The translations under genes and the position numbers were made by a program. Positions 13,476 through 39,635 of a stretch of 39,635 nt of DNA are shown one piece after another; position 1 is the stretch's first letter, and each line of letters opens with the position of its first letter. The stretch comes from a virus. Taxonomy: Duplodnaviria; Caudoviricetes. The notes under the pieces were generated by a model that was given only the letters and a program-made list of their open reading frames with translations, did not search any database and was not told the origin of the DNA. The DNA is taken from positions 1-39,635 of the IMG/VR virus record IMGVR_UViG_3300043403_000123; one strand, written 5' to 3'.

Positions 13476-14111
13476 CTAACCCAATCCTGCCATCATCTCC
13501 GGGGTGTACCTCAGCTTGTTCTTCTTTACCAATTGATCGTCATTGGCAAATAGCTGCTTGTAGTATCCATCCAATGCTGCCCCAATTGCATCAAGTTCTT
13601 CCCTCAGCTTACCTTTAATGGTGTATGCTGTCAGTTCGTCCTTCTCCTGTACAATCATACCCTTTTTAATGGTAGCTCCATCATCCCCGGATATGGAAAC
13701 ATTGTTGCTGCTGCGTACCGGTTGCATCAGCCTTTTGCAATATTCCTCGTACAATTGCTCATTCACCACTACCCTTTGCCATAGTCTGCTGTTGGTAAAG
13801 TTAAACAGATAAACTATAATAGCTTGTACATGAATATCATTGGTTAATTCCTTTAGTTCCTCCGGCAAGGTATTGTGCATCATCAGGTCGGCCAATATCA
13901 GTGCGCGGTTCTTCCTTTTGTCCAATGCCGGTTCTGCCTGAATTAATGGGCTGCCGGGGTCATACATCATTATTATGTACCTGATCACTCTTTCGTCGGC
14001 CACCAATCCACCCATGATCGCTTCCAGCTTTGGGTAACTGTCGTACAACTCAGCCTTCATGGGGTTGAATGCACATGCTTTAAAATCCTGTTCGGTGAAG
14101 TCGTTCATCAT
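13476..14111 (-). CDS. Hypothetical protein, candidate terminase small subunit (211 aa)
   Basis: Helical protein with a YIIMMYDPGSP motif, two genes upstream of TerL. The function is inferred from position only. Confidence 0.45.
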   Translation of the reverse strand: MMNDFTEQDFKACAFNPMKAELYDSYPKLEAIMGGLVADERVIRYIIMMYDPGSPLIQAEPALDKRKNRALILADLMMHNTLPEELKELTNDIHVQAIIVYLFNFTNSRLWQRVVVNEQLYEEYCKRLMQPVRSSNNVSISGDDGATIKKGMIVQEKDELTAYTIKGKLREELDAIGAALDGYYKQLFANDDQLVKKNKLRYTPEMMAGLG

Positions 14112-17100: not shown

Positions 17101-20100
17101 TATCCGACCTGAAAAATTCCCATGGCAATATTTCTGTCCTGGTAAATTTAGACTGAGCATAAGAAGATAAAAACGTATCTGCCTGATCTGTCAATAGGTT
17201 GTTATCATTCAGCCATTCCCTCCATTCAGTTGGCGTTTTTCGCATTCCAACTAAATCAAGCGGGTTCTTTATTGATAGGTAGAATACCCTTGGTGTAGCT
17301 TTTTCTATCCCTGCAAAGTATTTTGCAAAGGCTTTGGGCCAATTTTTATCTTGTGCAAAATAGAAAAATGAATGATTGCCAAACGTGCCCATGTTCTTGG
17401 GCTTAAACCCGGTAAAGTCATTATCACCATAAACGTTATAATGGTAAACAGGATTGGTAACCTTACTCCCTTCAAACCATTGCTTAAATTGCTCTGTATT
17501 GGGTGCGGCTGCCATGAAGGATGGTTGGGTGGCAATCTGTTTTCCCAACTCGTCTGCTGCAGCCATTTTTTTTCCCCACTTAACGGGTTGCCCTGGTCTT
17601 TCAATATGGCTGTAATTCCACTCGCTTCTTTTTTTGCTGTTGTTGGTAGTAATAATTATATCATTACTTGCCCGAAACTCTTTTATATCAATGTAATTGG
17701 CTGCACGTTCTTTTTCTTTCCGTTCCTCGTCTGCTTGCCTATATTCCTTATTGCCTCTTACTACACTCCAATAATTATCCCTTATAAGCTGATTAAAAAA
17801 TCCGTAATCATCGCTTGGTAATCCTACTTCTTCCCTTATTTTGGAATAATTATTATCAGTCCCATTTTCAATATTTGCAATCAAGGTGGATTTTACTAAC
17901 TCATAAACAGAATCGTTTACGCTTTCGTCCCCAATATACTTTTCGGCTAACTCGTAAATGTTTTGAATGTCTTTTAGGGTGTAATCATCTGCCCCGGTAT
18001 CAATAGTAATAGTTGCTGCTGAAACCTGTAAGCCTTCTGCACTATTTGCATCGCTAACGGCTCTTGTGTGGTCACTTATGCGTATGTCGTAACTTACTCC
18101 GCTTGGGCTGTCAAATTCTACATATTTACTATTTGTTGTCCGGCTTTGGTTGTAATTATCGGGGTTTACGCTAATCTTTTCAAGCCAATTTAATACGCCT
18201 TTATACGTCTGTGCAGGGTTGGCTTTTTTAAATTTAATTTCCAATCCGCTTCTGCCCAATCGTTTCACATCACCTGCTGCCATAAAACGAATATCGGGAT
18301 TACCCGCCATAAACATCGCTACATTTCCGCTTTCATCCTCCCTTTCCTCAATAGTATCAGCTAAATGCTTGTAAGCCTTATTTATTTCTACTGCTTCCTC
18401 CTTTGTTGGGTACGGAAAGTTTTCAAGGGTAAAACCGCTATCCTCTACCCATTGGCTCATTTCCTTAAAGTTAGCCAAATAGTCGTTCTTCTCCCCGGTT
18501 TCGGCAAGTTTGTTTATTATGAAGTTTTCAAATGTCCTTGCTGTCATTTCAACTGGATCACTCCAATACCGGTTCGACCTTGTTTTATCAAGTTCCAAAC
18601 TCCGCTGAGGTAGTTCCGTTGCATTTATGGCATCTACCAATGCTTTGTATGCCTGCATTACTTCCGGCCTTATCCTTTCATCCTTCACCCATTTCCCGGT
18701 GCTGTCTTTCACCAGTCCTGCCCTTGGGCTTGCTGTTACAAATCCTTCGGTGGTGCCGCGCATACGGCTGAAATAGTTATCCATGGCGTGCCACCACTCA
18801 TGGGCCAGGCTTCCGGCTCCTTTGGTTTTGGTAAGGTTAATTACCACCTTCTGCGCTTCAAAGTGTGCGTTGGCTTTGCCGCTACCCCTTGCGCCAAATG
18901 CAAGTCCTAATTTCCCATTCAGGCTAATAGCCTTGGGGTTAAGTCCCATCACTCCGGAAAGGTCCATCAGGGCATCATAAGCCTCGTTTATACTTACCTG
19001 CCTTTCGCCCTGGTTTACCCAATTTCCAAATTCAATACCACGGAAACCAAATTGCTTTGCAAATTCCTCTGCGGTAATATCCTTCCCCTTGCGCCAATTG
19101 CGCCCGTTTCTTGGGGTGTTGGCATCCGGCCTTTCTTCCGGGTTCAGCTTCATGCCATACCATTGTTCTTCAAGCTGTGCCTGATTTTCTTTAAGGTAGG
19201 CAAAGGTGTCTTTGGCGCTGGTAAAGCCTCCTATCATTCTTACATTATCGGTTCCTGTGGCCTTGGCAATAAAGTATTCAAGTGTTTTTCTATCCTGATA
19301 TACGCCAAACTTTACAGCCTTTTTGCTTGCCGTTTCTTTGGTGGCATTTATCATATTCACAAGCCCCCTGGCTGCTGCTTCTATGGTATCAAAGTCCTTT
19401 ATAATAATGCTGCCTTTTACTATGCTTACCCTGGCACCGTCCTTGCTGCTTGTCCATTTTTTTATTTCATACCCTCCTAACTTTGGGTTTACATTGGGAA
19501 AATCAAAGGCATCCATTACCTTGCTGTAAATCTCGTATGCATTGGCAAGGTAGGAATCTGTTTTTTGCCTTATAGAATCGCTCCAAACGGTATCAAGGTA
19601 TTTTGGATCTTCCACAATGCTTTTCACCATATCAATACCTTCCTGAACCCTGTTTACCCAATTTCGAAGCAAGTAAGGCTTCCGGGGTTTGGCAGGAATA
19701 TTCTGATACAGATATTTTATAAACTTGGCACCTTCCTTGCTTATAATCTTATCATCCACCAATTGCTTGTAATCCGGCTCCGGAAAACTTTTGCTTAATG
19801 GCTGGTTTATAATATCTTCTTGGGTAATGTCATTCAGCTTCCTTGCAAGGTCTTTCTTGGCTCCACCAATCTTTTCACCGTAATCTTCAATTTTTTCTTT
19901 TGGTGGGGCTTGTACCTGCTGCACCTGTTCTTTTGTCTGTGGCTTCAAGGCTTCGGGCACAATGGGTTCCATATTTGCCCCAAACATGCTTAGCTGCGCA
20001 GGGTTTACTTTCCCCCCGGCCATTAGCTTTGCTTCTTCGGGTACCATTTCGGCTGCGTATGTATTCATCGCATCCATTAATACAATCTGATCTTCACGCC

Positions 20101-23100
20101 TTACGTCCTCGGTTTCCTGCAATAAGGTTTGCCTGCGCTTATCAGCATTCATGTACATGCGCTTTTGCACGTTACGGCTTTCTACTTCTCCGGCAAGACG
20201 GCGGTAGGCTTCAAATGGAGTTATTCCCTTACCCGTTGCGCTAATTGCAGTAAGTACCCATTCGTCAACCTTATTTTCTTCTACTGCTTTTTTGTAGGAA
20301 GGGAGGTCTGAATATTCCCTTTCAATTATTTTTTTGCTTTCTTCAAAGGCAATTTTTTTAGTCATGTTGTCATTTCCACCTTTGGCAAATCCTTCTTCAT
20401 GCTGTATGGCATGCTGTAATTCATGGAGTAGAGTAGATAATACAACTTGATCCACCCCCTTTATATCCTCCGAAATCTGTATGTTTTTGGTTTTGTAGTT
20501 GTACTGTCCATTTACACTTTCTGGCAGGTAAGCAAACCCAATCTTTATTTCATTCATCAGGTTAGGATATGCCTGCGCAAATTCACCTTCAATAATTCTT
20601 TTTATTGGTGCTTCATAAGAATTTGAATCGTTGGTTTCTTCGGTTATACGTTTGGTTAGGCTTGTAATAGGCAAGGCTTCTATATCGTTTGCCTTTAATG
20701 CTGCCATTACCTGTTGCATTAAATCCTTTTGGTACCTTGGCAATCCAAGTTCCTTATCCAATGCTTCGAGGTCTTTAATTGCTTTTTCCCTCCCGCCTTT
20801 TGTAAAATCTTCGTTAGGGTCGTTTTCAGCATTAAGTTTATCAATCAATAGCCTTGCCCTTACTGCCTCGTTAAACACTGCTTTATTTACGCCACGCCTT
20901 ACGGTTATATCCGGTATTTCGTACTTCCATCGTGAATCTGCTCCCTTTTCCCATCCGGTTGCCAAACGAATATTAAGCGGGTCTTTACCTGCCTGCCCCA
21001 TATCCTTTGCCACCTTTAAATCACTCAGTATCTTTTCAGCGTTCTGCATCCTTGCGGCTCCGGTGGGGCCTGCAATCATAAAGCGGATATCGTTGCTTTC
21101 TTTGCTGAATGTGCCACGGTTGCCGGTGGCAGATTTTACTTGGTTGGGGTTTGCTACATAGTAAACGGTTCCTGAATCCTGATAATCTTCATCATCAATC
21201 CATGAATCTTTTATGTTATTAAATATCACTCCATCGTACCTGTCTGTGTCAAGGTTTGCAGTTATTTCCCTTGTACTGTTCCCAAATTTACTGCCAATGT
21301 TGTCCCATTTTCTGCCCCTTGCATTAATGATTAATGGATTTTCTAATTTTAAATAAACCTCCATTACATTATCGCCACCTGCATATCCATCAGCATTCAT
21401 ATAGTCGTCTGTGAAAAATGCGCCTCCTGCAAATTCAGTAAATTCAGTCATTGTCCCATGATACACCACCATCGGGCTACCATCAGGATTAACCACCTTG
21501 CTATCCCCAAACCACTTTTTAAAGGCTTCGCTGTTGGTGAGGGGTGCTGCCATAAATTTAACATTCCCAGAATCAGGTATGCTTGGATTTTCAAAATCCT
21601 GCACTATCTTTGTGGCCTGCTCAATGAGCTTAACCACCTCGGCGGAATGGGACTGCCGTTGGTTAAGCCATTCGGGCAGATTTGTTTTATCAGCATATTC
21701 AAGCAGGTTATCTTCCACTATCCAAAGTAGCATTTCCCTTTCATTATCCTTCGGGTAAAGGCTGCGAATGTCGTTTATCTTCGCTTTTTTGCCGTCAATA
21801 TCAAGGTGTAAGGCCACCACATAATTAGTATTACCCTTCTGCATTTCGGTAAGGATCAGCTTGGCATTACCCCTTGTTTTGCTTTGGAATACTGCCAATG
21901 GCCTTGCTATTGCACCTGGCAAGTCGGTAATTTCAAATAGCTTAATATCGTGCTTGTCCTGCTTTTTGCTTAGTTGGGTGCTTGCCATTTCAATAGGCAA
22001 ATCCGGTACTCCGGTACTCAAAAGTATTTCGGATGGCGGGCCAAGTTCAAATACTTTAAACTGTCTGTCTTTTGCGTACTTCAATAAATCAGCCTCAAAT
22101 TTCTGTTCGGCTGCTTTTTGCGCCTGCCTGCGGGTGGGGTAATTGGTACCGCCAACCATGAAAAGGGTCATTTGCTTACTCGCTTCCTTCTCCATACCTT
22201 GGTACTTACCATATAGCCTGTTGGTTTCGGCTGCCGCTTTATCCATCCTTGTTTTAAACGGCTGCAGGGCTTTTTCGGCTGCTTTCAATTGTGGCTTTTC
22301 ATCAAACAGCTTTTGCATACCGCCACGTTCTTCCGGCGTTTGCCCAAACAGATCCACCACTCCCTGCTTGTAGCTTTTCATCAGTTCGGCTTTCTTCTTT
22401 TCGTATGCGCCCTTGGCCGCATCATACTCAGCCTTTGCAGCATCAAGTAGCTTGCGGGTTTCCTTTTGCTCAGGTGTGGTAGGGGTGTAAAGGGTTGCGC
22501 CTGCCATGAAACGGGTATCACCGCTTTCGCTTATGGGTGTCCTTGCCCTTTCCGAATCACTCATACCACTACGTATGGCACTATTCCGCGCTTCTATTTC
22601 GCCCGGTACATCAAGGTATGTTTCGTATGCTTCGCGGTAAATTTCTTGCGCAATGGGATTGGTAGCACGGTCTGCTATTACCTTATCTGCATCAAGGGGA
22701 ATTATGTAAGCTAATACCTGTGCATTTGCAGGGTTTGCTTCTTGCATAATTGATCTGTACCTTTCTGCAATAGTTGCGTCAATTACGTTTTTTAGGTTAG
22801 CCCCTGGCTGCCATTTTTCTTTTTTCTGAACGTAATGTTGAATTTCGTGGGTGATAAGTTGGGTCAGTAGCTTGGACAGCAACTCCGGTCGTTCAAGTTG
22901 TGCCATGATGTCCCCACGGCTACCCATCCCGGATCTTCCGGTGTCCACACCTGGGCGATTTCCTTTAAAGTAACCGCTTGTGAAATAACGTCCGGCCACA
23001 CTTTTGCTGCCATTGACAAATATCGTTGGCGCAATTTCCTTTTGAGGTAATCCTCTTTGCTCTCTTTGTGCATATCGTGCATAATCTGTTTCAAATTGGC

Positions 23101-26100
23101 TGGTGTAAAAATCCAAATATACATCCTTCAATTCAGGATACAAATCGGCAAGTTCCCCCAAATCCACCATATCCCCCAGCTTGCCGGTTCGTACTTCCCC
23201 ATCTAACGCATCCTTAAATGCTTTTATTGTTTCATCAGGAATTTGTATGGGTTGCGTATCTCTTACTAATCTTCCGTCTGGCAATTCTTCTACTCCGGTT
23301 GCTGCCCATAATTTGCGCTTGTCGGTTATGGTTTTAGCCATATCCTCGTAATTTTCCTGCATTTTACTGCCTGCAGGTACAATCATCATCCTGGCTTCTC
23401 CTTCCTGTTCTGCTAAATTACCCTTCAAGCCCTTCCCACTCAATATCCTTCCAGCTACCGCCCCGGCTAATTCATCCATGCTCATTGCCGCCACCTGCTC
23501 CGGTGTAGCATTTTCAAAATCCTTTGCTGCCTTAGCTGCACTCCACCTTGCCCCAATACCCGTTTTACGCTCAATAGCATACCCGCTTGCCCATGCTGCC
23601 AATTCCTCTGTATTGCGGATGGTAACGCCCAATATGGCATCCTTAATGTTCTGCCACATGGTAACCAAATCATCCTTAAATGAACGGCTCATGCGGTTGC
23701 CCTGTGCGCCCACTGCCCATGCAAGGGCTTCATCGGCTATTACTGCATTGCTCTTACCTGCATAGTTCGGGTTGGCCCTTACCTGTGCTTCCCAATAGCT
23801 GCCCTTGGTTTTAGCCATCATGGCATCATGCAAAGTCTTGTTATTGGCCTTAAGCCATTTTATAAATACATGGCTTGCTTCGTGTACCGGCGTATTGGCA
23901 TTAAAGTATTTATCGTTTAAAAGTATTTTACCTGTGTCGGGGTGTACAAATCCATACACATTCCCTTCCCGATTGGTATAGGTTTCTGTTTCGTCCTTGG
24001 CTACGGAATCAACGGCTTTGGCGAAATTGGCCTCAGTCATTACTTCAATGCCTTTAAAATTTGGTACCCCTGCAAACAGATTTTTAATAACCTTAATTAT
24101 ATTTTTAGACCTTTTGCTATCGCTATCAATGGCATCAATATCACTCCCAAAAAATGTTTTCTGTTTAGCAGGGTTCAACCGGGCTTCTTTGCCTATGGGT
24201 GCAGCATCCTTGCTCTCTCCCATAAATGGTGCATCTTCCAAATCATCAAGGTTGGTATCTTCCCCAAAAGGGTTGTCTGGCAAGTTGGCAATAAAATCAT
24301 CATTGGCGGCTGTGTTGCCTGCGGCTTCTGCATCAATAATACGTTTTTGTTCTTCGGGATTAAGTAACCCACCTGCTGTAATATCTGTATCTATATCATC
24401 CTGCGTTTCACCTTCCTGCTCATACGCGGGTAATCTGCCATTGTACCATTCCACTACTTCTTCATCACTCTTTTCAAGTTTTCCAGCAAGGTCTTTTGCC
24501 ATTTGGGCCGTACTTGAATAGTCGTTTAGTACTTTTTCAACGGCTTCCCTAAAATCCTGATCGGTGTATTTATCCCTTGTACCATCCGGTATTTCTGCCC
24601 ATATTCGTTCCGCAAGCTCCTTTATGCCCGGACCATTTTTATCCATTATACCAATACGTGCCTGCCTTTCGGCTGTTACTGCCTTATCGGCTACGCCAGT
24701 ATTTAATGCTAAATTGCCCCCCCCAAATAAGTCTTGTATTGCCTGCGCTGAAATTTTACCGCCACCTATAAAGTAGCGCATTACCCTTGTTAAAGGTGTA
24801 AAATCATCCTCAGTACCTTCCATAGCCTTCCGGCTTATGGGGTTGCTTAGTTGCTTTGCTTTCCTTGGCTGGCTTGCTGTTGCCTGCGGTACCGGGCTAA
24901 CGCCTGCGTTAGTAGTGTTATTTCCTGCGGTTTCAGGCTGTTCCAAACCGGACTGTACTTGCGCTTGTTGGGCTGTTGCGCCGGTGGCTGTTGTGGTTGC
25001 TGCTGCTTGTCCATTACTTTGTAACGTTTTTATTATTGGTTTATTGCCCTGCTGCTGCATTTTTATTGCCGCTTCTTGTGCAACTTGTTTTGCAGCATCC
25101 AATTGGGTGTAGGTTAATACTGCCCCACGCTCGTTGGTTATGGGCTTTGGCTTACCATTGGTGCCGGGGGTATAAACGGTAAATACCCCATTGCGCCCCG
25201 GCTCAACGGTTGCCATGGTATTGCCATCCTTATCCTGCAGGCTTACTATTGCCTTACTGTTATCCTCGGTATCGGCCCATGTGCCGTTATCAATTTCAAT
25301 GGCAGGGGCTTTTGTTGCTACCCCTGTCGCTCCCATATCTTCGGTAAGTGCCCCCGCTAATTGATTTGCTATGGCCTGTTCTTCGGGGGTTAAATCTTCC
25401 GGTGTTGAAGTAGTAACGCCCGTAACTGCTTGTTGTGCGGCCTGTTGCTGCTGTTTAGCTTGTTCCAATATTTCTTCGGGAGCTTGTAAATCCATGTAGT
25501 CATTTACAATCAATTTATTATCTACAAGCCTATTTCTCCCATCCTGACTTTCCTTAATTTCTTTTAAAATTTGGGCTTTTATTACTGGGTCTTTTGTGGC
25601 TTCGGCCTTTTGGTACAATACCTTTTCATTGGCTGCCATCAATACCCACTTATCCAGCTTTTTTGCCGAAAGGTTAAGGGTGGATGGATCGATATTGGTA
25701 AGTTCCTTGTTTACCTGCTGAATATAGGCAATGCTGCTCAGCTTGTCCTTTGCTTCGTCCGGGGTGTATAAGGTTCCGGTATTATCCTGCACATGCCGTA
25801 TAAGGCTGTTGGTAAGGGTAGCATCCCTGCCTATTTGTGCCAATTGTGGAATAAGAAAATCAGCACTTTTGCGCCTGCCTGTACGGTATGCCCCGTAAAT
25901 ACTCATGGGCAAAAACCCTAATCCGGTGGCTATGGCTACATCCTTGCTGTTTTTAATGGTCTGTACAATATCAGCTTCCTCTGGTGCCATCAGGCTTTTT
26001 TCTATAAAATCAGCCCATTCAATAATCACTTCTTCACTTATTTCGCCTACCGTTCCCATGCCTGCATTCAGGGCAGTATTCCATGCTCCTTTCAATACGC

Positions 26101-28258
26101 CTTTTAGCTGGCTGTTAAATGTGCTGCGGGTTACCCCCTTTTTCCCCATGGCCTGTACTAATTCGGCCAATCCCCCGCTTACCTGCTTATTAAACATATC
26201 CAGGTATCTGGTATCTGGTATTATTAATTCACTTACACCTTCAAATAATGCCATCGTGTTTGCATACAATGGGGTTTTCCATGCTGCTCCTTCCTTACCT
26301 TCAAACATGGCTTCGCTTTTTGCCTGGTATCCTGGTAGGCTCATAGTGTACCCGGCTGTAATAAGGCCAATGGCATCGGCTGTACTTTTACCCATTTTTA
26401 ATCCTACGCCGGCCATCATGTTTTCGGCTATGCCTGCTGCGCCTGCTACTTTACCGGCCTTTATCGCCGTTGGTGCAAGGCCTGCTATGCGTAATCCTGC
26501 ATTGGTTGTACCGCTTATTGCTCCACCTATAACCCTTCCTAATGCCCCAAACATATATGCCTGCGAAATGGCATCCCCGGCAAAACCTATAAACTTTTCA
26601 TACCCCTTTCTGGTATCTACATACTGTTTTAATTCGGCAAACTTTACTTTATCTTCTGGCGTAAATGTGCCATCTTTTTCTTTTTGTGCCAATTGCTCAA
26701 ATTGCTGCATCAGTACTGGGCTTTCCCCTACATTTTGCAACATAGCGGTATATGAGCTATCAAGGCGGTCAATTGCTCTGGCTTGTTTATCAAACCCGAA
26801 TGGCATTGCTAAAAACTTTACTACCTCGGTGGCTGTACCCATAAAGCCATCTGCAACCCGCCCGGTCAAGTCCTGGCTTGGCAGGCTCATAATGCCGCCA
26901 ATATTGTTTTTTTCTTCGTTCTCCAATATTGGCCTTACATGCTTGTAGTAAAATGCCTTGTCGGTACTATTGAATTGGTTTGCGTATTTATCGGTTTCTA
27001 CCAGCTTGGCGTTGCTCTTGCCAATGTTTTCCCATACTGTATTGCCCCTGTTATGCTCGGCAGATAGCTTGTGCATAATGGTGCCAATCTTTTCGTCCGG
27101 GTGCCTGTCGTCAATGGTCTGCATTTGTTCTTCTGCTGCCATCATACGGTCTTGTTCCCCGGTAAGCATATCAGCCTGCAGCCCTAACATTTCGGCCTCG
27201 CGGTTTACCTTCCGGCTTCCACCTTTGGCAAGTTTGGCATCTGGATTATTCTTTTCCATTACCTTCCGGCCAATTTCCTGTGGGCTTGCGTTTGGCATTC
27301 TTAGCCTTAATTGGTATGCTTCAAGCAAATCAAGTTGCTGTGTGGCTTGGGTAAATTCGCTTTCAATAGCTTTTCTGTGGGAGCTTTCATACTCCATCAT
27401 TTTTACGGCACCCATCACCATTGGGTTTGCACCAAAAGCCATTCCCGCATTGTTGCCTGTTTTGCGTTCTATTTCAATCTTGGCCTGATTTATATTTTGC
27501 TTATGCTTTTCCGCTACTGCCTGCCTTACCTGCTGCAAATAATCAGGATCAGCAATGGCCTTGTTCATATCTACTTCACCTACCCATTGGGTCAGGTTAT
27601 CGGCAATATTCTTTTTTTGTGTTTCGCCAAATTGCTTAATGGCATCGTCCTTTTCTTTTTTGGCCCCGCTGCGTATAAGGTTTACCAAACCGGCTGCATC
27701 GGTTCTGCCCTTGGTTTGTGGTGCATAGTGGTTGGCTAATTGCGCTGCTACCTTTGGTGCTGTGGTTTTTACATACTGCCAATCGCTATCGCTCAGTGCG
27801 TCCCTTTTGCTTACAATATCGGCAATTTTTGCAGGGGCATCCTGCAGGTAGTTGTACAAATCCTTTCTGCCTTTCCATTGGTCGGTATGGTTGCTTGAAT
27901 TTTTAAGGCTATCAAAGTTTGCGCGTTGTTGCTTGTCAAATTCAAACAATCCATCTATATCCATTTCAGAAACAGTTGCCTTATGTTTGGCTCCTACTTC
28001 TTTTGGCGTAATGGCCAATACCCCTACCCCTGGCTTTTTTGCAGGAATAGGCTTTGGTGCACTATATTCAGGGTAAATTTGGTTCAGCATTTCTTCCGGT
28101 TCTTTCGCAACCGATTTCGCATACCAATATGCTTTTGCACGTTTTGCTTTGTTCAGGTCGAACCCCACTGCTTTTCCCATTTCCGGATCGGAAATAATAT
28201 CCTGCGGGGTTTTACCTGCTGCGTAGGCTGCTAAAATTTTTTCTAATATTGGATCCAT
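14108..28258 (-). CDS. Giant polyvalent virion/ejection protein (4716 aa): zincin peptidases x4, ART x2, MuF-C RNase-like, LPD23/LPD5/LPD1-like domains, helical LPD38-like C-terminus
   Basis: Uninterrupted 14.15-kb ORF following two ejection-type genes. It contains the HExxH motifs HEASH, HEIQH, HELQH and HEWWH, two FKxWF..SKV..YH..GYDG ART-type domains, KIEDYGEKIGGAKKD (LPD5-like), ATGWEKGADSRWKYEI (LPD23-like), YWSDPVEMTARTFE..YP (LPD1-like) and Gly/Ala-rich membrane-like stretches. Confidence 0.88.
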   Translation of the reverse strand: MDPILEKILAAYAAGKTPQDIISDPEMGKAVGFDLNKAKRAKAYWYAKSVAKEPEEMLNQIYPEYSAPKPIPAKKPGVGVLAITPKEVGAKHKATVSEMDIDGLFEFDKQQRANFDSLKNSSNHTDQWKGRKDLYNYLQDAPAKIADIVSKRDALSDSDWQYVKTTAPKVAAQLANHYAPQTKGRTDAAGLVNLIRSGAKKEKDDAIKQFGETQKKNIADNLTQWVGEVDMNKAIADPDYLQQVRQAVAEKHKQNINQAKIEIERKTGNNAGMAFGANPMVMGAVKMMEYESSHRKAIESEFTQATQQLDLLEAYQLRLRMPNASPQEIGRKVMEKNNPDAKLAKGGSRKVNREAEMLGLQADMLTGEQDRMMAAEEQMQTIDDRHPDEKIGTIMHKLSAEHNRGNTVWENIGKSNAKLVETDKYANQFNSTDKAFYYKHVRPILENEEKNNIGGIMSLPSQDLTGRVADGFMGTATEVVKFLAMPFGFDKQARAIDRLDSSYTAMLQNVGESPVLMQQFEQLAQKEKDGTFTPEDKVKFAELKQYVDTRKGYEKFIGFAGDAISQAYMFGALGRVIGGAISGTTNAGLRIAGLAPTAIKAGKVAGAAGIAENMMAGVGLKMGKSTADAIGLITAGYTMSLPGYQAKSEAMFEGKEGAAWKTPLYANTMALFEGVSELIIPDTRYLDMFNKQVSGGLAELVQAMGKKGVTRSTFNSQLKGVLKGAWNTALNAGMGTVGEISEEVIIEWADFIEKSLMAPEEADIVQTIKNSKDVAIATGLGFLPMSIYGAYRTGRRKSADFLIPQLAQIGRDATLTNSLIRHVQDNTGTLYTPDEAKDKLSSIAYIQQVNKELTNIDPSTLNLSAKKLDKWVLMAANEKVLYQKAEATKDPVIKAQILKEIKESQDGRNRLVDNKLIVNDYMDLQAPEEILEQAKQQQQAAQQAVTGVTTSTPEDLTPEEQAIANQLAGALTEDMGATGVATKAPAIEIDNGTWADTEDNSKAIVSLQDKDGNTMATVEPGRNGVFTVYTPGTNGKPKPITNERGAVLTYTQLDAAKQVAQEAAIKMQQQGNKPIIKTLQSNGQAAATTTATGATAQQAQVQSGLEQPETAGNNTTNAGVSPVPQATASQPRKAKQLSNPISRKAMEGTEDDFTPLTRVMRYFIGGGKISAQAIQDLFGGGNLALNTGVADKAVTAERQARIGIMDKNGPGIKELAERIWAEIPDGTRDKYTDQDFREAVEKVLNDYSSTAQMAKDLAGKLEKSDEEVVEWYNGRLPAYEQEGETQDDIDTDITAGGLLNPEEQKRIIDAEAAGNTAANDDFIANLPDNPFGEDTNLDDLEDAPFMGESKDAAPIGKEARLNPAKQKTFFGSDIDAIDSDSKRSKNIIKVIKNLFAGVPNFKGIEVMTEANFAKAVDSVAKDETETYTNREGNVYGFVHPDTGKILLNDKYFNANTPVHEASHVFIKWLKANNKTLHDAMMAKTKGSYWEAQVRANPNYAGKSNAVIADEALAWAVGAQGNRMSRSFKDDLVTMWQNIKDAILGVTIRNTEELAAWASGYAIERKTGIGARWSAAKAAKDFENATPEQVAAMSMDELAGAVAGRILSGKGLKGNLAEQEGEARMMIVPAGSKMQENYEDMAKTITDKRKLWAATGVEELPDGRLVRDTQPIQIPDETIKAFKDALDGEVRTGKLGDMVDLGELADLYPELKDVYLDFYTSQFETDYARYAQREQRGLPQKEIAPTIFVNGSKSVAGRYFTSGYFKGNRPGVDTGRSGMGSRGDIMAQLERPELLSKLLTQLITHEIQHYVQKKEKWQPGANLKNVIDATIAERYRSIMQEANPANAQVLAYIIPLDADKVIADRATNPIAQEIYREAYETYLDVPGEIEARNSAIRSGMSDSERARTPISESGDTRFMAGATLYTPTTPEQKETRKLLDAAKAEYDAAKGAYEKKKAELMKSYKQGVVDLFGQTPEERGGMQKLFDEKPQLKAAEKALQPFKTRMDKAAAETNRLYGKYQGMEKEASKQMTLFMVGGTNYPTRRQAQKAAEQKFEADLLKYAKDRQFKVFELGPPSEILLSTGVPDLPIEMASTQLSKKQDKHDIKLFEITDLPGAIARPLAVFQSKTRGNAKLILTEMQKGNTNYVVALHLDIDGKKAKINDIRSLYPKDNEREMLLWIVEDNLLEYADKTNLPEWLNQRQSHSAEVVKLIEQATKIVQDFENPSIPDSGNVKFMAAPLTNSEAFKKWFGDSKVVNPDGSPMVVYHGTMTEFTEFAGGAFFTDDYMNADGYAGGDNVMEVYLKLENPLIINARGRKWDNIGSKFGNSTREITANLDTDRYDGVIFNNIKDSWIDDEDYQDSGTVYYVANPNQVKSATGNRGTFSKESNDIRFMIAGPTGAARMQNAEKILSDLKVAKDMGQAGKDPLNIRLATGWEKGADSRWKYEIPDITVRRGVNKAVFNEAVRARLLIDKLNAENDPNEDFTKGGREKAIKDLEALDKELGLPRYQKDLMQQVMAALKANDIEALPITSLTKRITEETNDSNSYEAPIKRIIEGEFAQAYPNLMNEIKIGFAYLPESVNGQYNYKTKNIQISEDIKGVDQVVLSTLLHELQHAIQHEEGFAKGGNDNMTKKIAFEESKKIIEREYSDLPSYKKAVEENKVDEWVLTAISATGKGITPFEAYRRLAGEVESRNVQKRMYMNADKRRQTLLQETEDVRREDQIVLMDAMNTYAAEMVPEEAKLMAGGKVNPAQLSMFGANMEPIVPEALKPQTKEQVQQVQAPPKEKIEDYGEKIGGAKKDLARKLNDITQEDIINQPLSKSFPEPDYKQLVDDKIISKEGAKFIKYLYQNIPAKPRKPYLLRNWVNRVQEGIDMVKSIVEDPKYLDTVWSDSIRQKTDSYLANAYEIYSKVMDAFDFPNVNPKLGGYEIKKWTSSKDGARVSIVKGSIIIKDFDTIEAAARGLVNMINATKETASKKAVKFGVYQDRKTLEYFIAKATGTDNVRMIGGFTSAKDTFAYLKENQAQLEEQWYGMKLNPEERPDANTPRNGRNWRKGKDITAEEFAKQFGFRGIEFGNWVNQGERQVSINEAYDALMDLSGVMGLNPKAISLNGKLGLAFGARGSGKANAHFEAQKVVINLTKTKGAGSLAHEWWHAMDNYFSRMRGTTEGFVTASPRAGLVKDSTGKWVKDERIRPEVMQAYKALVDAINATELPQRSLELDKTRSNRYWSDPVEMTARTFENFIINKLAETGEKNDYLANFKEMSQWVEDSGFTLENFPYPTKEEAVEINKAYKHLADTIEEREDESGNVAMFMAGNPDIRFMAAGDVKRLGRSGLEIKFKKANPAQTYKGVLNWLEKISVNPDNYNQSRTTNSKYVEFDSPSGVSYDIRISDHTRAVSDANSAEGLQVSAATITIDTGADDYTLKDIQNIYELAEKYIGDESVNDSVYELVKSTLIANIENGTDNNYSKIREEVGLPSDDYGFFNQLIRDNYWSVVRGNKEYRQADEERKEKERAANYIDIKEFRASNDIIITTNNSKKRSEWNYSHIERPGQPVKWGKKMAAADELGKQIATQPSFMAAAPNTEQFKQWFEGSKVTNPVYHYNVYGDNDFTGFKPKNMGTFGNHSFFYFAQDKNWPKAFAKYFAGIEKATPRVFYLSIKNPLDLVGMRKTPTEWREWLNDNNLLTDQADTFLSSYAQSKFTRTEILPWEFFRSDNGQFHQKLIEAGYDGIIMNDSNYGSKGSNVTYVSIDPLQIRAVTSDSANFMAAPNQPTPIASDFSNIYQKVYPLISRGMTDAQMLPIIRAAMAIKGLDPLLADNILARAKVNYQKQLYSNPQPGSPLIPATQVQDNEKSIARKTWDFLKRNFTSSEGMPTWFKELADYARGESQWIVRKAENFLKQQLTPAFKKMTPAQQQGFAELIADKTAASANVDALTPEHKRLASEYRQHIDRLTNEFIVNGWVTPLQAQTLLENMGSYLNRSYRIFNEKDWEKKIPENVKVEALNFLKEGIFAHDSPNNPGFQNNVEAERLAQLELKRLLAAAEGDKFGFKTTEFGMDKGILKRRQDVPAPIRKLYGEYTDPAEQFIMTVAKLASLRMQAKYLTDIFNMGMGKVFWAKNDPSADPRATELVAADGSPSWAPLSGLYATPEVAQYINEGHEASNKFLNAYRKFAGTVKAGKTVYSPVTQAINLFSNAAWYIANGYYLSNPVTQAKDLARTTKLWFTNVFANSKATDYWNQRMIQLGLFDGSVTMQDLKNMFAEGDADAIMIQAQSNIAQAWGDKLKSGLRDNVITRSYAMADAASKFVGWRKESEALAWVRHNKDYDDLSATEKEAIEKEAAERVKNTQPTGQRAYRGALWLSKNFAIFGNFITFQIEAIRCARNVVHYALHDIKEGKKNGNAREVLMGTRRLVGIAGYLTLRGAILKGLGAIGGMAMSGLYSLWNDDDEEKKKRLAAINAIGRPYMRTMDKYMTQNEDGTWEVYNLNALEPMSVVFKIPNAFTNGNELVDNPGALAALTELVVPYAEPDMIVNSFSRTLIGEKDAMGREVYGPIDKMATIAHDLMPSAVPFVQRMFKKEDGRMADWNDIFTEMQGLDVDFDPRQLIGIRPYRVDPLRNFKTYVRDRLKDADAIKKREWENKYKHDKGDITDDAYFAEKQAIKDAQVALGDDIATMKQHAAVLGVNESEMNKIVKNMMEFSKYDKTTIKAAKQ
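16955..17512 (-). other. Domain within giant protein: ADP-ribosyltransferase-like (ART-PolyVal) copy 2
   Basis: TEQFKQWFEGSKV..VYHY..FFYFA..FYLSIKNPL..AGYDGII..YVSIDPLQIR. Confidence 0.75.
18314..20020 (-). other. Domains within giant protein: LPD5-like + zincin metallopeptidase (HEWWH, 18788-18802) + LPD1-like
   Basis: KIEDYGEKIGGAKKD; FGFRGIEFGNWV..LGLAFGARG..AH..INLTK..GAGSLAHEWWHAMD; YWSDPVEMTARTFE..YPTKEE. Confidence 0.75.
20027..21076 (-). other. Domains within giant protein: LPD23-like + zincin metallopeptidase (HELQH, 20411-20425)
   Basis: IRLATGWEKGADSRWKYEIPD..AYPNL..STLLHELQHAIQHEEGFAKGG..YRRLAGEVESRNVQKR. Confidence 0.75.
21083..21550 (-). other. Domain within giant protein: ADP-ribosyltransferase-like (ART-PolyVal) copy 1
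   Basis: AFKKWFGDSKVVNPDGSPMVVYHGT..FFT..VMEVYLKLENP..YDGVIF..PNQVKSATGNRGTF..NDIR. Confidence 0.8.
21557..22156 (-). other. Domain within giant protein: MuF C-terminal (BECR-fold RNase-like) domain
   Basis: LGPPSEILLSTGVPDLPIEM..KH..LPGAIARPLAVFQS..LILTE..VVAL..INDIRSLYPKD. Confidence 0.65.
22511..23383 (-). other. Domains within giant protein: diverged LPD23-like + zincin metallopeptidase (HEIQH, 22835-22849)
   Basis: LWAATGVEELPDGRL..LYPELKD..THEIQHYVQKKE..YLDVPGEIEAR; paralogous to the 20027-21076 module. Confidence 0.7.
23390..24220 (-). other. Domain within giant protein: zincin metallopeptidase (HEASH, 23870-23884)
   Basis: VYGFV..GKILLN..NTPVHEASH..DEALA (third-ligand Glu region). 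Confidence 0.7.
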
Positions 28259-35985: not shown

Positions 35986-36657
35986 TTATATTTTTACTGG
36001 TGAAGTTTGATTTTGAACGGTTTTTTCATTGGCATACTGCACTATCTCCGGTTGTTTCAGGTTTACCCCAAGTAATTCAAGTGCTTTCATCAATACCGGG
36101 TTCATGTAGCTATCTGCCCACTGTGGATTCGTGCTTGTATTCGGGTCGTGGGTTTCTACCGTTCCGCTTGCTGTGTAGGAATAAAATGGCTTTACCGGTG
36201 TGCTAAGGTAATTAAGGGTAACCGTGTACACTGCTGTTTTTGGGTACACCTGTATGCCTGCTTTCTTTAAAACGGCAATTGGCTTTTGGTTGGTTACCGG
36301 CCTTACCTGGCTGCTCAGTGCATCGCCCAATTCATCCGATTTGTAAAGTTTGAGTGCCGTAACAAAGTTTTGCAGCAACTCATTATCATAATAGTTAGCC
36401 ATAGCCCCGGTTGCATGCTCGTATCCGGAAGGATAAGCCACATAACCTGTTGCATTGGTGGTTAGGTCAGTTTCCTCCCTGAAAGGCTTTAGCGCCTCAT
36501 GCACATATTGGGTTTGTAAAAATTCGGCAAAATAGGTAGCAAATACCCCTAACTGTGCGTTATGGATAGCAGTGTCCTTCTTCCCCCTGCTGAAAAACCC
36601 TGTCCGGGTTTTCTTTAGCATGAAGTCCAACCAGTCATGTGCTTCCTTTATGGTCAT
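35986..36657 (-). CDS. Head-tail adaptor/ring protein (223 aa)
   Basis: MTIKE.H..L.K...GF....D.AI.NAQ..LKPF..YLSTP.KP..ALELLGVNL is the pattern of Bacteroidota podophage portal-proximal ring proteins. Confidence 0.65.
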   Translation of the reverse strand: MTIKEAHDWLDFMLKKTRTGFFSRGKKDTAIHNAQLGVFATYFAEFLQTQYVHEALKPFREETDLTTNATGYVAYPSGYEHATGAMANYYDNELLQNFVTALKLYKSDELGDALSSQVRPVTNQKPIAVLKKAGIQVYPKTAVYTVTLNYLSTPVKPFYSYTASGTVETHDPNTSTNPQWADSYMNPVLMKALELLGVNLKQPEIVQYANEKTVQNQTSPVKI

Positions 36658-37253
36658 AGCTTACCAATTATATATTTTTCCTTAACCAAACATATATCAT
36701 CCCCGTAATGGCTTTTCAGGTTATAATGCTGTACCAATTCAGGGATCACCAATATCTTATCACCGGGCTTGTATTCGCTTTGTGGGCTTACGTGCAATAT
36801 TTCCAGGATGGTATTGCTTTTTTGGGTAGCAAACTGCTCGGGTACCACCAATATGCTGCTTTTAAATGTTTCAACTTCGGTTCGCTTGGCTATAAGCAAC
36901 CCTTTGGGCACCAGCAAACTACCACCTTTGTCAAGGGCTACTACCTGGTAACCGGCCACAAACCATTCAGTTTTGCCACCCGGTAGCATAATTTCGTTAA
37001 AATGCTTCCGTTGCCCGTCAATGGCATCGCCCTCTGCCACTACATCGTACCGGAAAAACATGGTATCACCTACCTGTGCCCCAAGATCATCATTTTGAGG
37101 TACGAAAGTTATCGTACCTGCAAGGGTTGCCTTTTCCTGGTGTTCTATCCATGTGTCCTGAAATAGTTTTACGCCGCTATCAAACGTAATCGTCTGCTGA
37201 TAGCGGCTTTCTATTCCTACCCGGTATTGATACAGTCGGCCTTCTCTGTCCAT
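36654..37253 (-). CDS. Tandem GroES-like (co-chaperonin) protein (about 199 aa)
   Basis: Two GroES-like repeats: SGVKL..GTITFVP..VGDTMFF and SSILVVP..KPGDKILV..GDDICLVKEKYIIGKL. The start at 37253 (MDREG) is preferred because the longer start crosses an operator site. Confidence 0.6.
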   Translation of the reverse strand: MDREGRLYQYRVGIESRYQQTITFDSGVKLFQDTWIEHQEKATLAGTITFVPQNDDLGAQVGDTMFFRYDVVAEGDAIDGQRKHFNEIMLPGGKTEWFVAGYQVVALDKGGSLLVPKGLLIAKRTEVETFKSSILVVPEQFATQKSNTILEILHVSPQSEYKPGDKILVIPELVQHYNLKSHYGDDICLVKEKYIIGKL

Positions 37254-37259
37254 GGTGTA

Positions 37260-37274
37260 GTTATATGGTTTAAC
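37260..37274. promoter_or_regulatory. Operator-like site GTTATA-TGG-TTTAAC (1 mismatch)
   Basis: 6 nt upstream of the GroES-like ATG at the head of the structural operon. Confidence 0.6.
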
Positions 37275-37316
37275 CAACACCAAAAATAAAACCATTGTAA
37301 GTAATACGGCAAAAAA

Positions 37317-37595
37317 TTATTTTCGGGGGCCTGCACCGTCTAAAAGCCAGGCATAATTAACCCCAAAATGCTTGCGAATCTGCTTTAAAGCGAAAATATT
37401 GGGGGTAAAAGATCGAACTTCAATCTGTTTTATATAACTTTCGGTAAGGGTTAATTTTTCAGCAAACTCCTTTTGGGTTAGTGCAGATTCAAGACGGACA
37501 AGTTTAAACCTATCGCAAATATCAAGGTGCGACATAGGCATTTCGCTGTTCTTTTTGCCCATTCCTGCTGGTTTCTTTGTGGGCTTATTTTCCAT
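37317..37595 (-). CDS. XRE/Cro-CI family helix-turn-helix regulator
   Basis: RFKLVRLESALTQKEFAEKLTLTESYIKQIE..TPN..L..I..HFGVNYAWLLDGAG is a canonical HTH_3 signature. Confidence 0.88.
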   Translation of the reverse strand: MENKPTKKPAGMGKKNSEMPMSHLDICDRFKLVRLESALTQKEFAEKLTLTESYIKQIEVRSFTPNIFALKQIRKHFGVNYAWLLDGAGPRK

Positions 37596-37651
37596 GTTTT
37601 GCGTTTATGTAGCAAACTTGCAACTTTTTTTTATTCTTTTTGTAATATTTA

Positions 37652-37684
37652 TTTGGAAATATCGGGTTAAACCTTTTAACTTTG
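37652..37684 (+). promoter_or_regulatory. Bacteroidota primary-sigma promoter (-33 TTTG, -7 TAACTTTG) overlapped by operator GTTAAA-CCT-TTTAAC (37666-37680)
   Basis: TTTG at 37652-37655, a 21-nt spacer and TAACTTTG at 37677-37684 match the TTTG-N19-21-TAnnTTTG consensus. The ATG at 37689 implies a near-leaderless mRNA. Confidence 0.7.
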
Positions 37685-37688
37685 GTGC

Positions 37689-37910
37689 ATGAAAATAGAA
37701 ATAGAATCTGTTGAAAGGCCATCAACGGAAGCGGGGCTTTCTTTTTGCGGATGGAAAGTTTCGCAAGGTGACAAATGTGCCAACAATCTTAGTTTTGATG
37801 AAATGCTGGGGCTTGTTGCGGCTCTTACAATGCCCGAAATAAAACCACAAATTAACTGGTTAAGAACCGAAAAGCAGCATCGAAGCGATGAATTTACCTT
37901 TGAATTTTAA
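37689..37910 (+). CDS. Hypothetical protein (73 aa)
   Basis: First ORF after the divergent promoter. Confidence 0.6.
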   Translation: MKIEIESVERPSTEAGLSFCGWKVSQGDKCANNLSFDEMLGLVAALTMPEIKPQINWLRTEKQHRSDEFTFEF

Positions 37911-37929
37911 AATAGTTAAACTGTTTAAC
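37895..37929 (+). promoter_or_regulatory. Putative -7 element TACCTTTG (37895-37902) followed by operator GTTAAA-CTG-TTTAAC (37915-37929)
   Basis: Perfect palindrome copy in the 29-nt intergenic gap. The -7 consensus lies just upstream, but there is no clear -33. Confidence 0.6.
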
Positions 37930-37939
37930 CACTATAAAT

Positions 37940-38173
37940 ATGGACTTAAAAAACGATTATCTGGAAGTAGTTATTATCCCGGTCAAAACACCGTCAGGGA
38001 TTGAAATTCCCCACCCCCGGTTTGTAACCTTTTACACCGTCAACGGTCCGGAAGGTATGGTTGGAAACAAATACCTGGCTGAGCCCGGTAACTTGTTTGC
38101 AATGATTGATAAGCATTATATAAAGCTGGATCATGTACTTGGCGAAGTAGAAAACGAAACTGCAGTAAGGTGA
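37940..38173 (+). CDS. Hypothetical protein (77 aa)
   Basis: ORF with an AT-rich leader, coupled (GTGA) to the next gene. Confidence 0.6.
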   Translation: MDLKNDYLEVVIIPVKTPSGIEIPHPRFVTFYTVNGPEGMVGNKYLAEPGNLFAMIDKHYIKLDHVLGEVENETAVR

Positions 38174-38586
38174 AAAAGGGTAATATTTCGGAAGCGGATT
38201 TTATTGAACTGATTAAAAGCAGCAAGGTTGCCCACCTTAATAACCTGGATGGCCTTGCTAAAAAACCGGATAAAAAGAAGCACAAGTTTAAGGCTATTCC
38301 TGTTGAACGGGATGGTATAAAGTTTGACAGCACAAAAGAAGCTAACCGGTACCTGGAATTAAAGTTTATGGAAAAGCATGGGCAAATTACCGATCTGAAA
38401 CTGCAGGTGCCTTTTGAACTTAATGAAGGCGGCAGCCACCCGGTAAAGTACATAGCCGATTTTACTTACAATGATCAGGATGGGGCCTATGTAGTAGAGG
38501 ATAGCAAGGGGTTTAAGACTAGGGAGTATTTGAAAAAGAAAAGGCTGATGGTGAAGATGTGGGGGGTGAAGGTGAAGGAGACGTAG
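38170..38586 (+). CDS. DUF1064-family PD-(D/E)XK-type nuclease
   Basis: DGIKFDSTKEANRY..L.LQVPFEL..KYIADFTY..VVEDSKGFKTREY..KKRLM. Confidence 0.85.
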   Translation: MKKGNISEADFIELIKSSKVAHLNNLDGLAKKPDKKKHKFKAIPVERDGIKFDSTKEANRYLELKFMEKHGQITDLKLQVPFELNEGGSHPVKYIADFTYNDQDGAYVVEDSKGFKTREYLKKKRLMVKMWGVKVKET

Positions 38587-38712
38587 CGGTTCTCGGCTTT
38601 GTGCAAGTGGGGATTTGGAACACGAAAGTTTCAATTCAGCACAAAAGCCGATTAGAATTACTGCTGTTGAATTTAGCACGTCAGCCCCACTTGCGTAAAG
38701 CATTTGTTAGTG
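38581..38712 (+). mobile_element. attC-like recombination site 1 (132 bp)
   Basis: Degenerate R'' ACGTAGC overlapping the DUF1064 stop, inverted arms GCTTTGTGCAAGTGGGG (38596-38612) / CCCCACTTGCGTAAAGC (38685-38701), and R' GTTAGTG (38706-38712). Confidence 0.6.
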
Positions 38713-38769
38713 GCTGCCGTTTTCACGATAAAACTTCTGGGCGGAGTTATAAAACCCACAAATAAAAAA

Positions 38770-39264
38770 ATGAGTGTATCAGTAGAAATGCCAAAGTACA
38801 AAAGCCACAAAGAAGTATGGGCTTTAAAAATTAAATCCATTGTTAGAGATGGGGAAGGTGAAAATCGTGAAAGCGATGGAAGTTCAATTATTACTCCCGA
38901 AGAAAAAGGTTATGCACCTTTTAGAGTTGAGGGTGATTATTTGCATAAGCACAAACCACAAGTAGGAGGTTATTATGTAGTTTACAAAGATGGCTACAAA
39001 TCATTTTCACCTGCCAAAGCATTTGAAGAAGGGAATACTTTGATAAAAGAAAATTCTTTTTTCGACAGGATTCTAATTGAAGCACAAGAGTTGGCGACAA
39101 AAACAAACGCCTTAAATGACTTTATGAGAACACAAAAATTTGTTGACCTTGATAGGCAAAACAAAGATTTACTTTACAAACAGTCAAGATTAATGAACGA
39201 GTATTTACAAGTACTTGGGCAAAGAATTGAGTTACTTGGTGAAAAGTTTTCTTTCAAACAGTAA
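38770..39264 (+). CDS. Two-domain phage protein (GGYYVVYKDGYKSFSP domain + crAss001_48-like helical hairpin), candidate anti-defence protein
   Basis: Start at ATG 38770 after an A-rich leader (the track start at 38704 lies inside the attC-like site). The motifs were recognised from memory and the function is inferred. Confidence 0.6.
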   Translation: MSVSVEMPKYKSHKEVWALKIKSIVRDGEGENRESDGSSIITPEEKGYAPFRVEGDYLHKHKPQVGGYYVVYKDGYKSFSPAKAFEEGNTLIKENSFFDRILIEAQELATKTNALNDFMRTQKFVDLDRQNKDLLYKQSRLMNEYLQVLGQRIELLGEKFSFKQ

Positions 39265-39279
39265 CAATTAATTGTGGCT

Positions 39280-39306
39280 CGTAGGATGGCGGATTGCTGT
39301 CCTACG
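39280..39306 (+). terminator. Hairpin downstream of cassette gene (possible terminator/stabiliser)
   Basis: CGTAGGATGGC-GGATT-GCTGTCCTACG, an 11-bp stem with G-U pairs. There is no strong U tract. Confidence 0.4.
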
Positions 39307-39311
39307 GTTGC

Positions 39312-39443
39312 CACTAACGGAAAAGCATTGGCCGCAGTAGCCGAATTTATTAACCAAAAGTTTAATCACTTAATGAAGCCACATAGTACCATATCGTTCA
39401 ACACATGCACCACATCGGCTATTGAGCCAATGCAGTGTTATAC
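39312..39443 (+). mobile_element. attC-like recombination site 2 (132 bp)
   Basis: R'' CACTAAC (39312-39318), inverted arms GCATTGGCCGCAGTAGCCGA (39325-39344) / TCGGCTATTGAGCCAATGC (39415-39433) with a bulged base, and R' GTTATAC (39437-39443). Confidence 0.7.
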
Positions 39444-39485
39444 GATGTCGTCTGGCGGCTTTCTCAAACCCAAAAAAACCTTGAA

Positions 39486-39635
39486 ATGAAACATGGTAGC
39501 CTTTTTAGTGGGATTGGTGGATTTGACCTTGCAGCCGAATGGATGGGATGGGATAATATTTTTCATTGTGAGTGGAATGAGTTTGGACAAAAGGTTTTGA
39601 AATACTATTGGCCGGAAGCTGAATTATTTACGGAT
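39486..39635 (+). CDS. DNA (cytosine-5)-methyltransferase, N-terminal fragment (truncated by the window edge; absent from the ORF track)
   Basis: Hand translation MKHGSLFSGIGGFDLAAEWMGWDNIFHCEWNEFGQKVLKYYWPEAELFTD contains SAM-binding motif I (FSGIGG) and motif II (CE). Confidence 0.88.
   Translation, partial: MKHGSLFSGIGGFDLAAEWMGWDNIFHCEWNEFGQKVLKYYWPEAELFTD

Follow-up and report, generated by a model that had tools for sequence, protein, structure and literature searches.

Bacteria are known to keep resistance and anti-phage genes in integrons. The closest published record to the array analyzed here is the report of Qi et al. 2023 (PMC9892861) on CALINs in phages, which shares with it clusters of attC-like sites without an integrase in virulent phages and methyltransferase cargo. 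Qi et al. called two sites in Polaribacter phage P12002L and took them as ordinary attC; attC1 of that phage, the sole typical site of the present hairpin family tried with IntI1, failed. In contrast, our site detector gave 12 matches to this family on the coding strand of P12002L, attC1 included. The main text of that report, in the portion available, describes no reversed gene polarity, short recombinase, terminal site, or shared shell.

Conserved noncoding elements that mark or shuffle accessory and anti-defense genes have been described as PeSLs in T4 (PMC2839356) and as archaeal anti-defense motifs (PMC11065993). According to the available portions of these papers, those elements are promoter or terminator motifs, whereas the shell described below consists of paired complementary UTRs that enclose an ORF and are nested in a site-specific cassette. 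As for cargo, the described sponges include Sequestin, Tad1, Tad2, Acb2, and Acb4 (10.1101/2025.07.12.664507). In the accessible part of that study, PF21825 is the Sequestin family of 3′cADPR sponges, which inhibit type I Thoeris, 10 of 13 members tested were active, and the word integron does not occur in the main text.

We analyzed an entire virus contig of 39,635 nt (the window), whose CheckV completeness is 54%. On comparative sequence evidence, we consider it probable that its right end holds the promoter-proximal start of an integron-like array of hairpin-then-gene units, served by a short IntI-like recombinase, with a first unit that likely encodes a sponge within a shared shell. The open-access literature that we searched contained no description of the short-recombinase system or of the shell.

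Two fold-back sites behind a promoter motif

The contig encodes a terminase, a portal, virion genes, and, on the minus strand (14108-28258), a 4,716-aa polyvalent protein with ART-PolyVal, MuF_C, LPD1, LPD5, and LPD23 domains. A GroES-like gene (36654-37295, minus strand; phrog_13932) heads the virion operon, and an HTH repressor-like gene (37317-37595, minus strand; PF12844/PF01381 and PHROG repressors) is divergent from the array operon. The motif TTTG-N21-TAnnTTTG, which we take to be the Bacteroidota promoter consensus, has two matches on the plus strand of the window. One of them, at 37652-37684, lies where a promoter upstream of the array had been predicted (37652); the divergent plus-strand operon begins behind it, and it is likely the driver of the array. 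Because of the type of this motif and the relatives of the hairpins, we infer a host among the Bacteroidota. The DUF1064 or Holliday-junction-resolvase-like gene upstream of the first site (38170-38586, plus strand) is not a cassette; its TAG stop sits where the first site would have TAA. Searches for close relatives for an empty-site comparison yielded none by the adaptor gene and a single distant locus by DUF1064.

The two fold-backs of the original prediction, each 132 nt long (38581-38712 and 39312-39443, plus strand), were both found, as was the 13/15 match between 38706-38720 and the reverse complement of 39304-39318. The two GTTs lie 731 bp apart. When 38501-39635 was shuffled 300 times in two-base blocks, a site of at least the quality of site 2 arose in 2 shuffles and a GTT..AAC pair at 13/15 in 3, and the site detector reported 0 sites on either strand of positions 1-38500. 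Both fold-backs and their end complementarity exceed chance. Folding of the whole elements on the plus strand is modest (z of −1.9 for site 1 and −0.9 for site 2), since long loops dilute the arms, which in site 1 are 17 nt long and 88% complementary. The two sites share their length because the commonest AAC-to-GTT length in the hairpin family is 118 nt (73 hairpins). A MITE reading was rejected, as we saw no evident target duplication or terminal-repeat family and the units contain genes. No Rfam family reached its gathering score over 37200-39635 (best E 1.7).

Site 1, which belongs to the gene downstream of it, starts with TAGC, the TAG being the DUF1064 stop. TAAC stands at this place in 11 of 12 relatives of hairpin 1, a type that precedes the same shell in 12 other units (eight cargo families, window included). 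The left crossover core of site 1 has decayed to TAGC, leaving a left cassette end that is probably no longer recombinogenic. Hairpin 1 (38581-38712) also looks chimeric, with left and right arms of different family types, which would explain its arm mismatches and suggests a crossover within the loop. Site 2 retains an intact TAAC core, with a putative crossover at 39317/39318, and belongs to the methyltransferase cassette.

Compared with attC, whose spacers between the R and L boxes are near-symmetric (about 5 and 5-6 nt), the window sites have spacers of 6/3 and 8/4, and the modes of their family are 5/1, 5/2, and 6/2. Their folds contain mismatches and small loops in the arms and no evident pair of extrahelical bases ∼6 nt apart. 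The AAC and GTT cores would re-form the R stem in a circle, with 13/15 pairs in the window and compensatory pairs in 60 shell variants. Measured against a CALIN, defined by at least two attC-like sites that have no integrase nearby, the window holds two sites, one of them decayed, and the contig stops 190 nt past site 2.

Unit polarity and the linked recombinase

Crossover at the coding-strand G^TT, with a circle of 38707-39437, had been proposed for cassette movement, with the complementarity of unit start and end as the hallmark of an integrated cassette; our comparisons do not support this crossover as the main route. This complementarity cannot decide polarity, because both possible circles are 731 bp long and rebuild the same stem. 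Four pairwise comparisons among four cultured Muminvirus genomes gave three distinct clean indels (506, 1581, and 412 bp), which are three events within one phage genus, and one replacement. The break intervals were TAACGTT, TAACGTT, and CTTATAAC, each lying at a hairpin's upstream foot, and every insertion consisted of a hairpin plus a gene. Precise gain and loss of cassettes in relatives was therefore found as expected, only with breaks at TAAC, upstream of the hairpin, instead of at G^TT.

Linkage between hairpins and genes points the same way. The 62 units with the window's shell have 23 upstream arm types vs. 59 downstream; a like-for-like comparison restricted to left arms gave 14 vs. 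23 types in 24 units. Arm mismatches on the TAAC strand were G-T in 456 cases and C-A in 148, and 256 of 264 rebuilt junctions folded better on that strand. These comparative data indicate that the usual crossover would be at the coding-strand TAAC and that each gene carries its upstream hairpin, in contrast with the integron order of a gene followed by its own attC and a crossover at the coding-strand G|TT. With polarity taken from the Muminvirus indels and the hairpin linkage, cassette 1 would comprise hairpin 1, shell, and gene (38587-39317, plus strand; 731 bp). Cassette 2 carries the 5′ part of a C5 DNA methyltransferase gene (39486-39635, plus strand; PF00145, phrog_363) truncated at the contig end. 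Positions 39315-39471, from the site-2 TAAC across the GTT, recur in a contig of another run, so that hairpin 2 appears to travel with the start of the methyltransferase unit. Two scans gave 0 matches to a further copy of the end of this cassette, and the contig of the best run stops at 39633.

Site 1 matches were hairpins of cultured Flavobacterium phages in 16 of 17 cases; the arrays of these phages hold 9 to 13 detector sites within their first 10 kb, and the units between sites mostly have 10-11/12 end complementarity. Comparison of units indicates that hairpins also swap exactly at GTT, less often, and that TAAC is not the sole joint; the circle 38707-39437 may exist as a minor species. 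Contigs from eight runs contained no joint of either circle, an uninformative result as contigs drop rare forms. Between Muminvirus mumin6-2 and mumin6-3 (L065 and L066, unit after record position 5358/4852), a few bases differ at the beginning of one unit. This start is complementary to the unit's end at 11/12 positions in mumin6-3 and at 8/12 in tooticki6-1, and the change looks like stem correction via a folded intermediate.

We assign very little probability to canonical attC cassettes, in which a gene and its downstream hairpin would be moved by a host IntI through coding-strand G^TT crossover. Such cassettes would account for the palindromic AAC..GTT layout with its restored stem and for the hairpin exchanges exactly at GTT, and IntI1 recombined five of six phage attC sites (PMC9892861). 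Against this stand the indel breaks at TAAC, a downstream hairpin that is nearly unique to each copy, family spacers mostly at the modes given above vs. 5/6 in attC-aadA7 (our own reading), the failure of P12002L attC1, and the score of the linked enzyme, which lies under the TIGR02249 cut-off.

A single pattern for the sites matched 65 genome loci, mostly from Bacteroidota. Chromosomal arrays have their genes on the strand opposite to TAAC (L170 10/10, L214 6/6), which is the normal integron layout and the orientation of integron cassettes. In phage-like contigs the genes lie on the TAAC strand (L158 9/9), reversed relative to the chromosomal arrays. Site polarity is thus constant, and it is the phage genes that are flipped. 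A weak match to hairpin 1 (E 0.03) also lies between genes on the Empedobacter brevis plasmid pSE1-3-20kb (L221:7001-7086), which bears resistance genes as well; the hairpin family may bound cassettes on Bacteroidota plasmids.

The absence of an integrase from the window, asserted at the outset, was reproduced by a PF00589 search, which found no tyrosine recombinase in this 54%-complete contig. Six recombinase candidates occurred in genome loci, three of which head arrays (L159, L185, and L197). These three match TIGR02249 in two pieces with 192-226 bits, below the cut-off of 265. The L185 enzyme has 21 residues where VchIntIA has 64 and, on alignment to 2A3V, ∼43 residues fewer; the IntI-specific insertion (alpha-I2 region) is thus missing from L185 as aligned, and the window supplies no enzyme to compare. 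The stretch that is short in L185 holds, in VchIntIA, residues contacting extrahelical bases, according to the accessible part of PMC3053210.

A profile built from the three array-heading enzymes detected the family in 40 of 121 sampled Bacteroidota genomes. A site lay within 1.5 kb of the recombinase in 13 of 30 Bacteroidota loci vs. 1 of 30 shuffles and 0 of 3 XerC/D-like loci. Near 56 viral homologues (the closest of 80 fetched), 133 of 147 sites were upstream on the same strand and 14 were elsewhere. At least two sites were present in 30 of the 38 viral loci with enough flank; for single sites the detector is noisy, as 17 of 56 shuffled viral loci gave one. The recombinase ATG follows the last AAC by 33-87 nt in 24 of 31 viral arrays. 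Homologous arrays end at a nonhairpin site of the TAAC-TATTATATA type ∼50 nt before the recombinase gene, and in viral arrays the last AAC is often followed by TATTATATA. At locus L049, a shell cassette adjoins the recombinase gene. None of eight other array-bearing phage records, Muminvirus mumin6-2 and P12002L among them, encodes a recombinase. By its sequence, the enzyme family is IntI-like, lacks the IntI insertion, and is tied to the sites by position only. The predicted link between the array and a tyrosine recombinase thus reappears in homologous arrays, with an enzyme that is not a canonical IntI.

That many array phages lack the enzyme would also suit a different reading, in which the hairpins would be repeats with a role in RNA processing or regulation, gene movement would rely on homologous or microhomology recombination, like that of the T4 PeSLs, and the neighboring recombinase would be incidental. 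The better-folding strand is the mRNA strand too, and PeSLs, in the portion of PMC2839356 available, shuffle genes and form minicircles by recombination. We think this reading highly unlikely, given breaks confined to 7-8 nt intervals at a fixed motif between unlike hairpins and a recombinase whose distance to a fixed terminal site is constant. Moreover, the genes of the chromosomal arrays L170 and L214 lie on the other strand, so that folding tracks the polarity of the sites instead of the mRNA.

Arrays of this kind share with integrons (IntI, attI, and attC; class 1 and VchIntIA) folded sites of single-strand type with an AAC/GTT core, units of one gene each, a tyrosine recombinase next to an end site that forms no hairpin, and a G-T wobble bias on one strand. 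The attI-type nonhairpin site by the recombinase gene is that of the 24 of 31 homologous arrays; the far end of the window array lies past the contig. They differ in the reversal of phage genes relative to the sites, in a spacer asymmetry of about +3 to +4, and in the short, low-scoring recombinase. The proposed phage-borne cassette system is accordingly real, with sites that are not canonical attC and an enzyme that is not canonical IntI: an integron-like array with reversed genes that falls outside integrons by the IntI and attC criteria tested. Mechanistically, the coding strand would fold and be cut at AA|C, as is the attC bottom strand in integrons. New cassettes would enter at the attI-like far end, which would make cassette 1 the oldest one present. 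Hairpins could be swapped at GTT through occasional use of the other strand or through recombination within the loop, and the enzyme may come from a gene past the contig end, from the host, or from another phage.

The conserved shell and its cargo

The gene of cassette 1 is enclosed by two untranslated halves on the plus strand. The 5′ half (38706-38769) comprises an outer stem arm (38706-38720), a small hairpin (38728-38750), an inner pairing arm (38751-38763), and an A-rich start region; the 3′ half (39262-39318) comprises an inner pairing arm (39270-39279), a hairpin (39280-39306), and the other outer stem arm (39304-39318). We built a DNA pattern of the 3′ UTR on relatives of the window cassette; it matched 33 viral and 86 metagenome loci. 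With the window there were 120 matches, and removing duplicates and seven that lacked a usable ORF left 87 distinct units in 30 protein clusters. The full shell, with a complete 5′ half and a matching GTT start, was present in 61 units in 24 protein clusters. No shell was found in the bacterial genome loci L156-L260 or the recombinase loci L261-L340, and no other multigene shell was found among 302 units, a set biased to the present shell.

On the coding strand, 60 distinct UTR pairs share a fold of one outer stem and two hairpins, in which compensatory and G-U changes occur. The inner pairing that would enclose the ORF is absent from the consensus fold; pairwise it reaches −10.7 kcal/mol vs. 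−9.6 kcal/mol for permuted partners (0/300). The largest cargo clusters are Tad2 (11 units), Sequestin (10, 10, and 3), and Acb2/Tad1-hairpin proteins, and the shell also carries a Tad1-like protein (PDB 8KBB, E 2e-13), so that its contents resemble the known sponges; cluster labels rest on one to three representatives per cluster. Sponge Pfams occur in 8 of 24 shell clusters vs. 1 of 149 other cassette families (Fisher p 4e-7) and, without the two query-related clusters, in 6 of 22 (p 2e-5), but related shells share ancestry, and these tests, like the covariation test, overstate independence. The sole sponge match among the control families, L082, sits in a diverged shell.

The shell may be an expression module: a folded RNA selected for proteins needed in quantity. 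Rare illegitimate events close to the start and the stop would bring genes in, and homologous exchange between shells would then spread them. A dedicated gene-capture device that places bare ORFs between the CCCACAA and TTGTGG arms, whether through an inner recombination site or by an RNA-templated step, is improbable in our judgment. The tight bounding of at least 24 families at start and stop speaks for such a device, as do the narrow UTR lengths (59-71 nt on the 5′ side and 51-59 nt on the 3′ side), the covarying inner arms, and the presence of 7 of the 12 cargo families with two or more units in more than one 5′ shell subtype. No empty shell occurs among 50 units of the main shell cluster, however, the linkers beside start and stop vary in length with no fixed crossover seen, and selection for expression explains the cargo bias equally well.

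Other untranslated flanks recall the shell. The methyltransferase cassette's 5′ UTR (39437-39485) resembles the shell's 5′ half (78% over 23 nt), perhaps as a diverged shell. UTRs that are purine-rich on the 5′ side and pyrimidine-rich on the 3′ side, possibly a second type of shell, occur in L017, L018, L013, and L059, once around a Sequestin gene. In L009 (4559-5322), with similar flanks in L008, L015, L019, L023, and L003, the same Sequestin gene lies between repeated tRNA-like elements, mostly uncalled by ARAGORN, which are possibly a second gene-shuffling or RNA-processing array.

The cassette 1 protein has 164 aa and two domains, both of which occur separately in other phages at 95-99% identity. 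Upstream of its ATG the frame is open through the GTT without a further ATG, and stand-alone homologues use that start codon as well; the translation start was therefore set at 38770. The C-terminal domain (39049-39264, plus strand) belongs to PF21825, the Sequestin family (E 1.5e-14; 54 bits vs. a curated cut-off of 24.8). It has invariant E, Q, and R residues at a pocket-like spacing that looks similar to that of SequestinA. By homology, the cargo protein likely blocks bacterial immune signals, and the expected counter-defense cargo thus takes the form of a Sequestin sponge domain in cassette 1.

In contrast to the known sponges, the 92-aa N-terminal domain (38770-39045, plus strand; phrog_11049) has no Pfam family and is predicted to adopt an OB fold like that of phage L Dec. 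Its model has a pLDDT of 80 and matches a Dec-like fold in Foldseek with an E of 9e-5; against Dec, VIA gave a Z of 7.8, within the range of common arrangements, with an rmsd of 3.2 over 83 aligned residues. Among 120 listed longer homologues of the domain (299 found), 40 carry a known sponge family: PF21825 in 21 (one being the window protein), PF11195 in 13, PF13876 in 6, and PF24729 in 2, with two homologues carrying two families. Sequestin itself was found through this criterion of fusion to known sponge families. A four-copy model of a 93%-identical stand-alone domain scored 0.71 vs. 0.02 for the best control, with a contact agreement of at least 72% and a pLDDT of at least 82. In calibration, which applies only roughly to this case, 20 of 30 solved homodimers and 1 of 23 monomers attained the score mark. 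No sponge structure is among the listed fold matches, and the domain may still be related to sponges. We regard it, from these fusions and models, as a candidate new sponge.

Unassigned shell cargo families include an RyR-domain protein (L059:3627-3986) and three without Pfam (L053:701-916, L036:3739-3987, and L075:1315-1488). A PDB sequence search with four unassigned cargo families, the N-terminal domain included, gave no credible match, and the ESM Atlas gave only unnamed clusters. Shell cargo without an assigned function, the N-terminal domain among it, can be treated as candidate anti-defense proteins.

Phage counter-defense and cassette formation

What is new at this locus is the Sequestin-family cargo and an untranslated shell that recurs around at least 24 protein families. 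A larger claim, which we regard as unlikely, would make the array a counter-defense integron of Bacteroidota phages, with hairpin-first cassettes shuffled by a recombinase that lacks the IntI insertion and a shell that actively captures bare ORFs, offering both a route of cassette birth and a barcode for undiscovered sponges, the Dec-like domain included. The IntI insertion has been called essential (PMC8138268, in the portion available), and a recombinase that acts on folded sites without it would, if confirmed, challenge that requirement. Cassette formation is listed as an open question in the accessible part of PMC8618304; one shell around at least 24 unrelated genes would be a tractable case for it. 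The shell also yields a short list of ∼16 unassigned protein families as candidate inhibitors of Thoeris, CBASS, or Pycsar. If the array is what it appears to be, a phage integron stocked with counter-defense genes would be the other side of the integron arms race.
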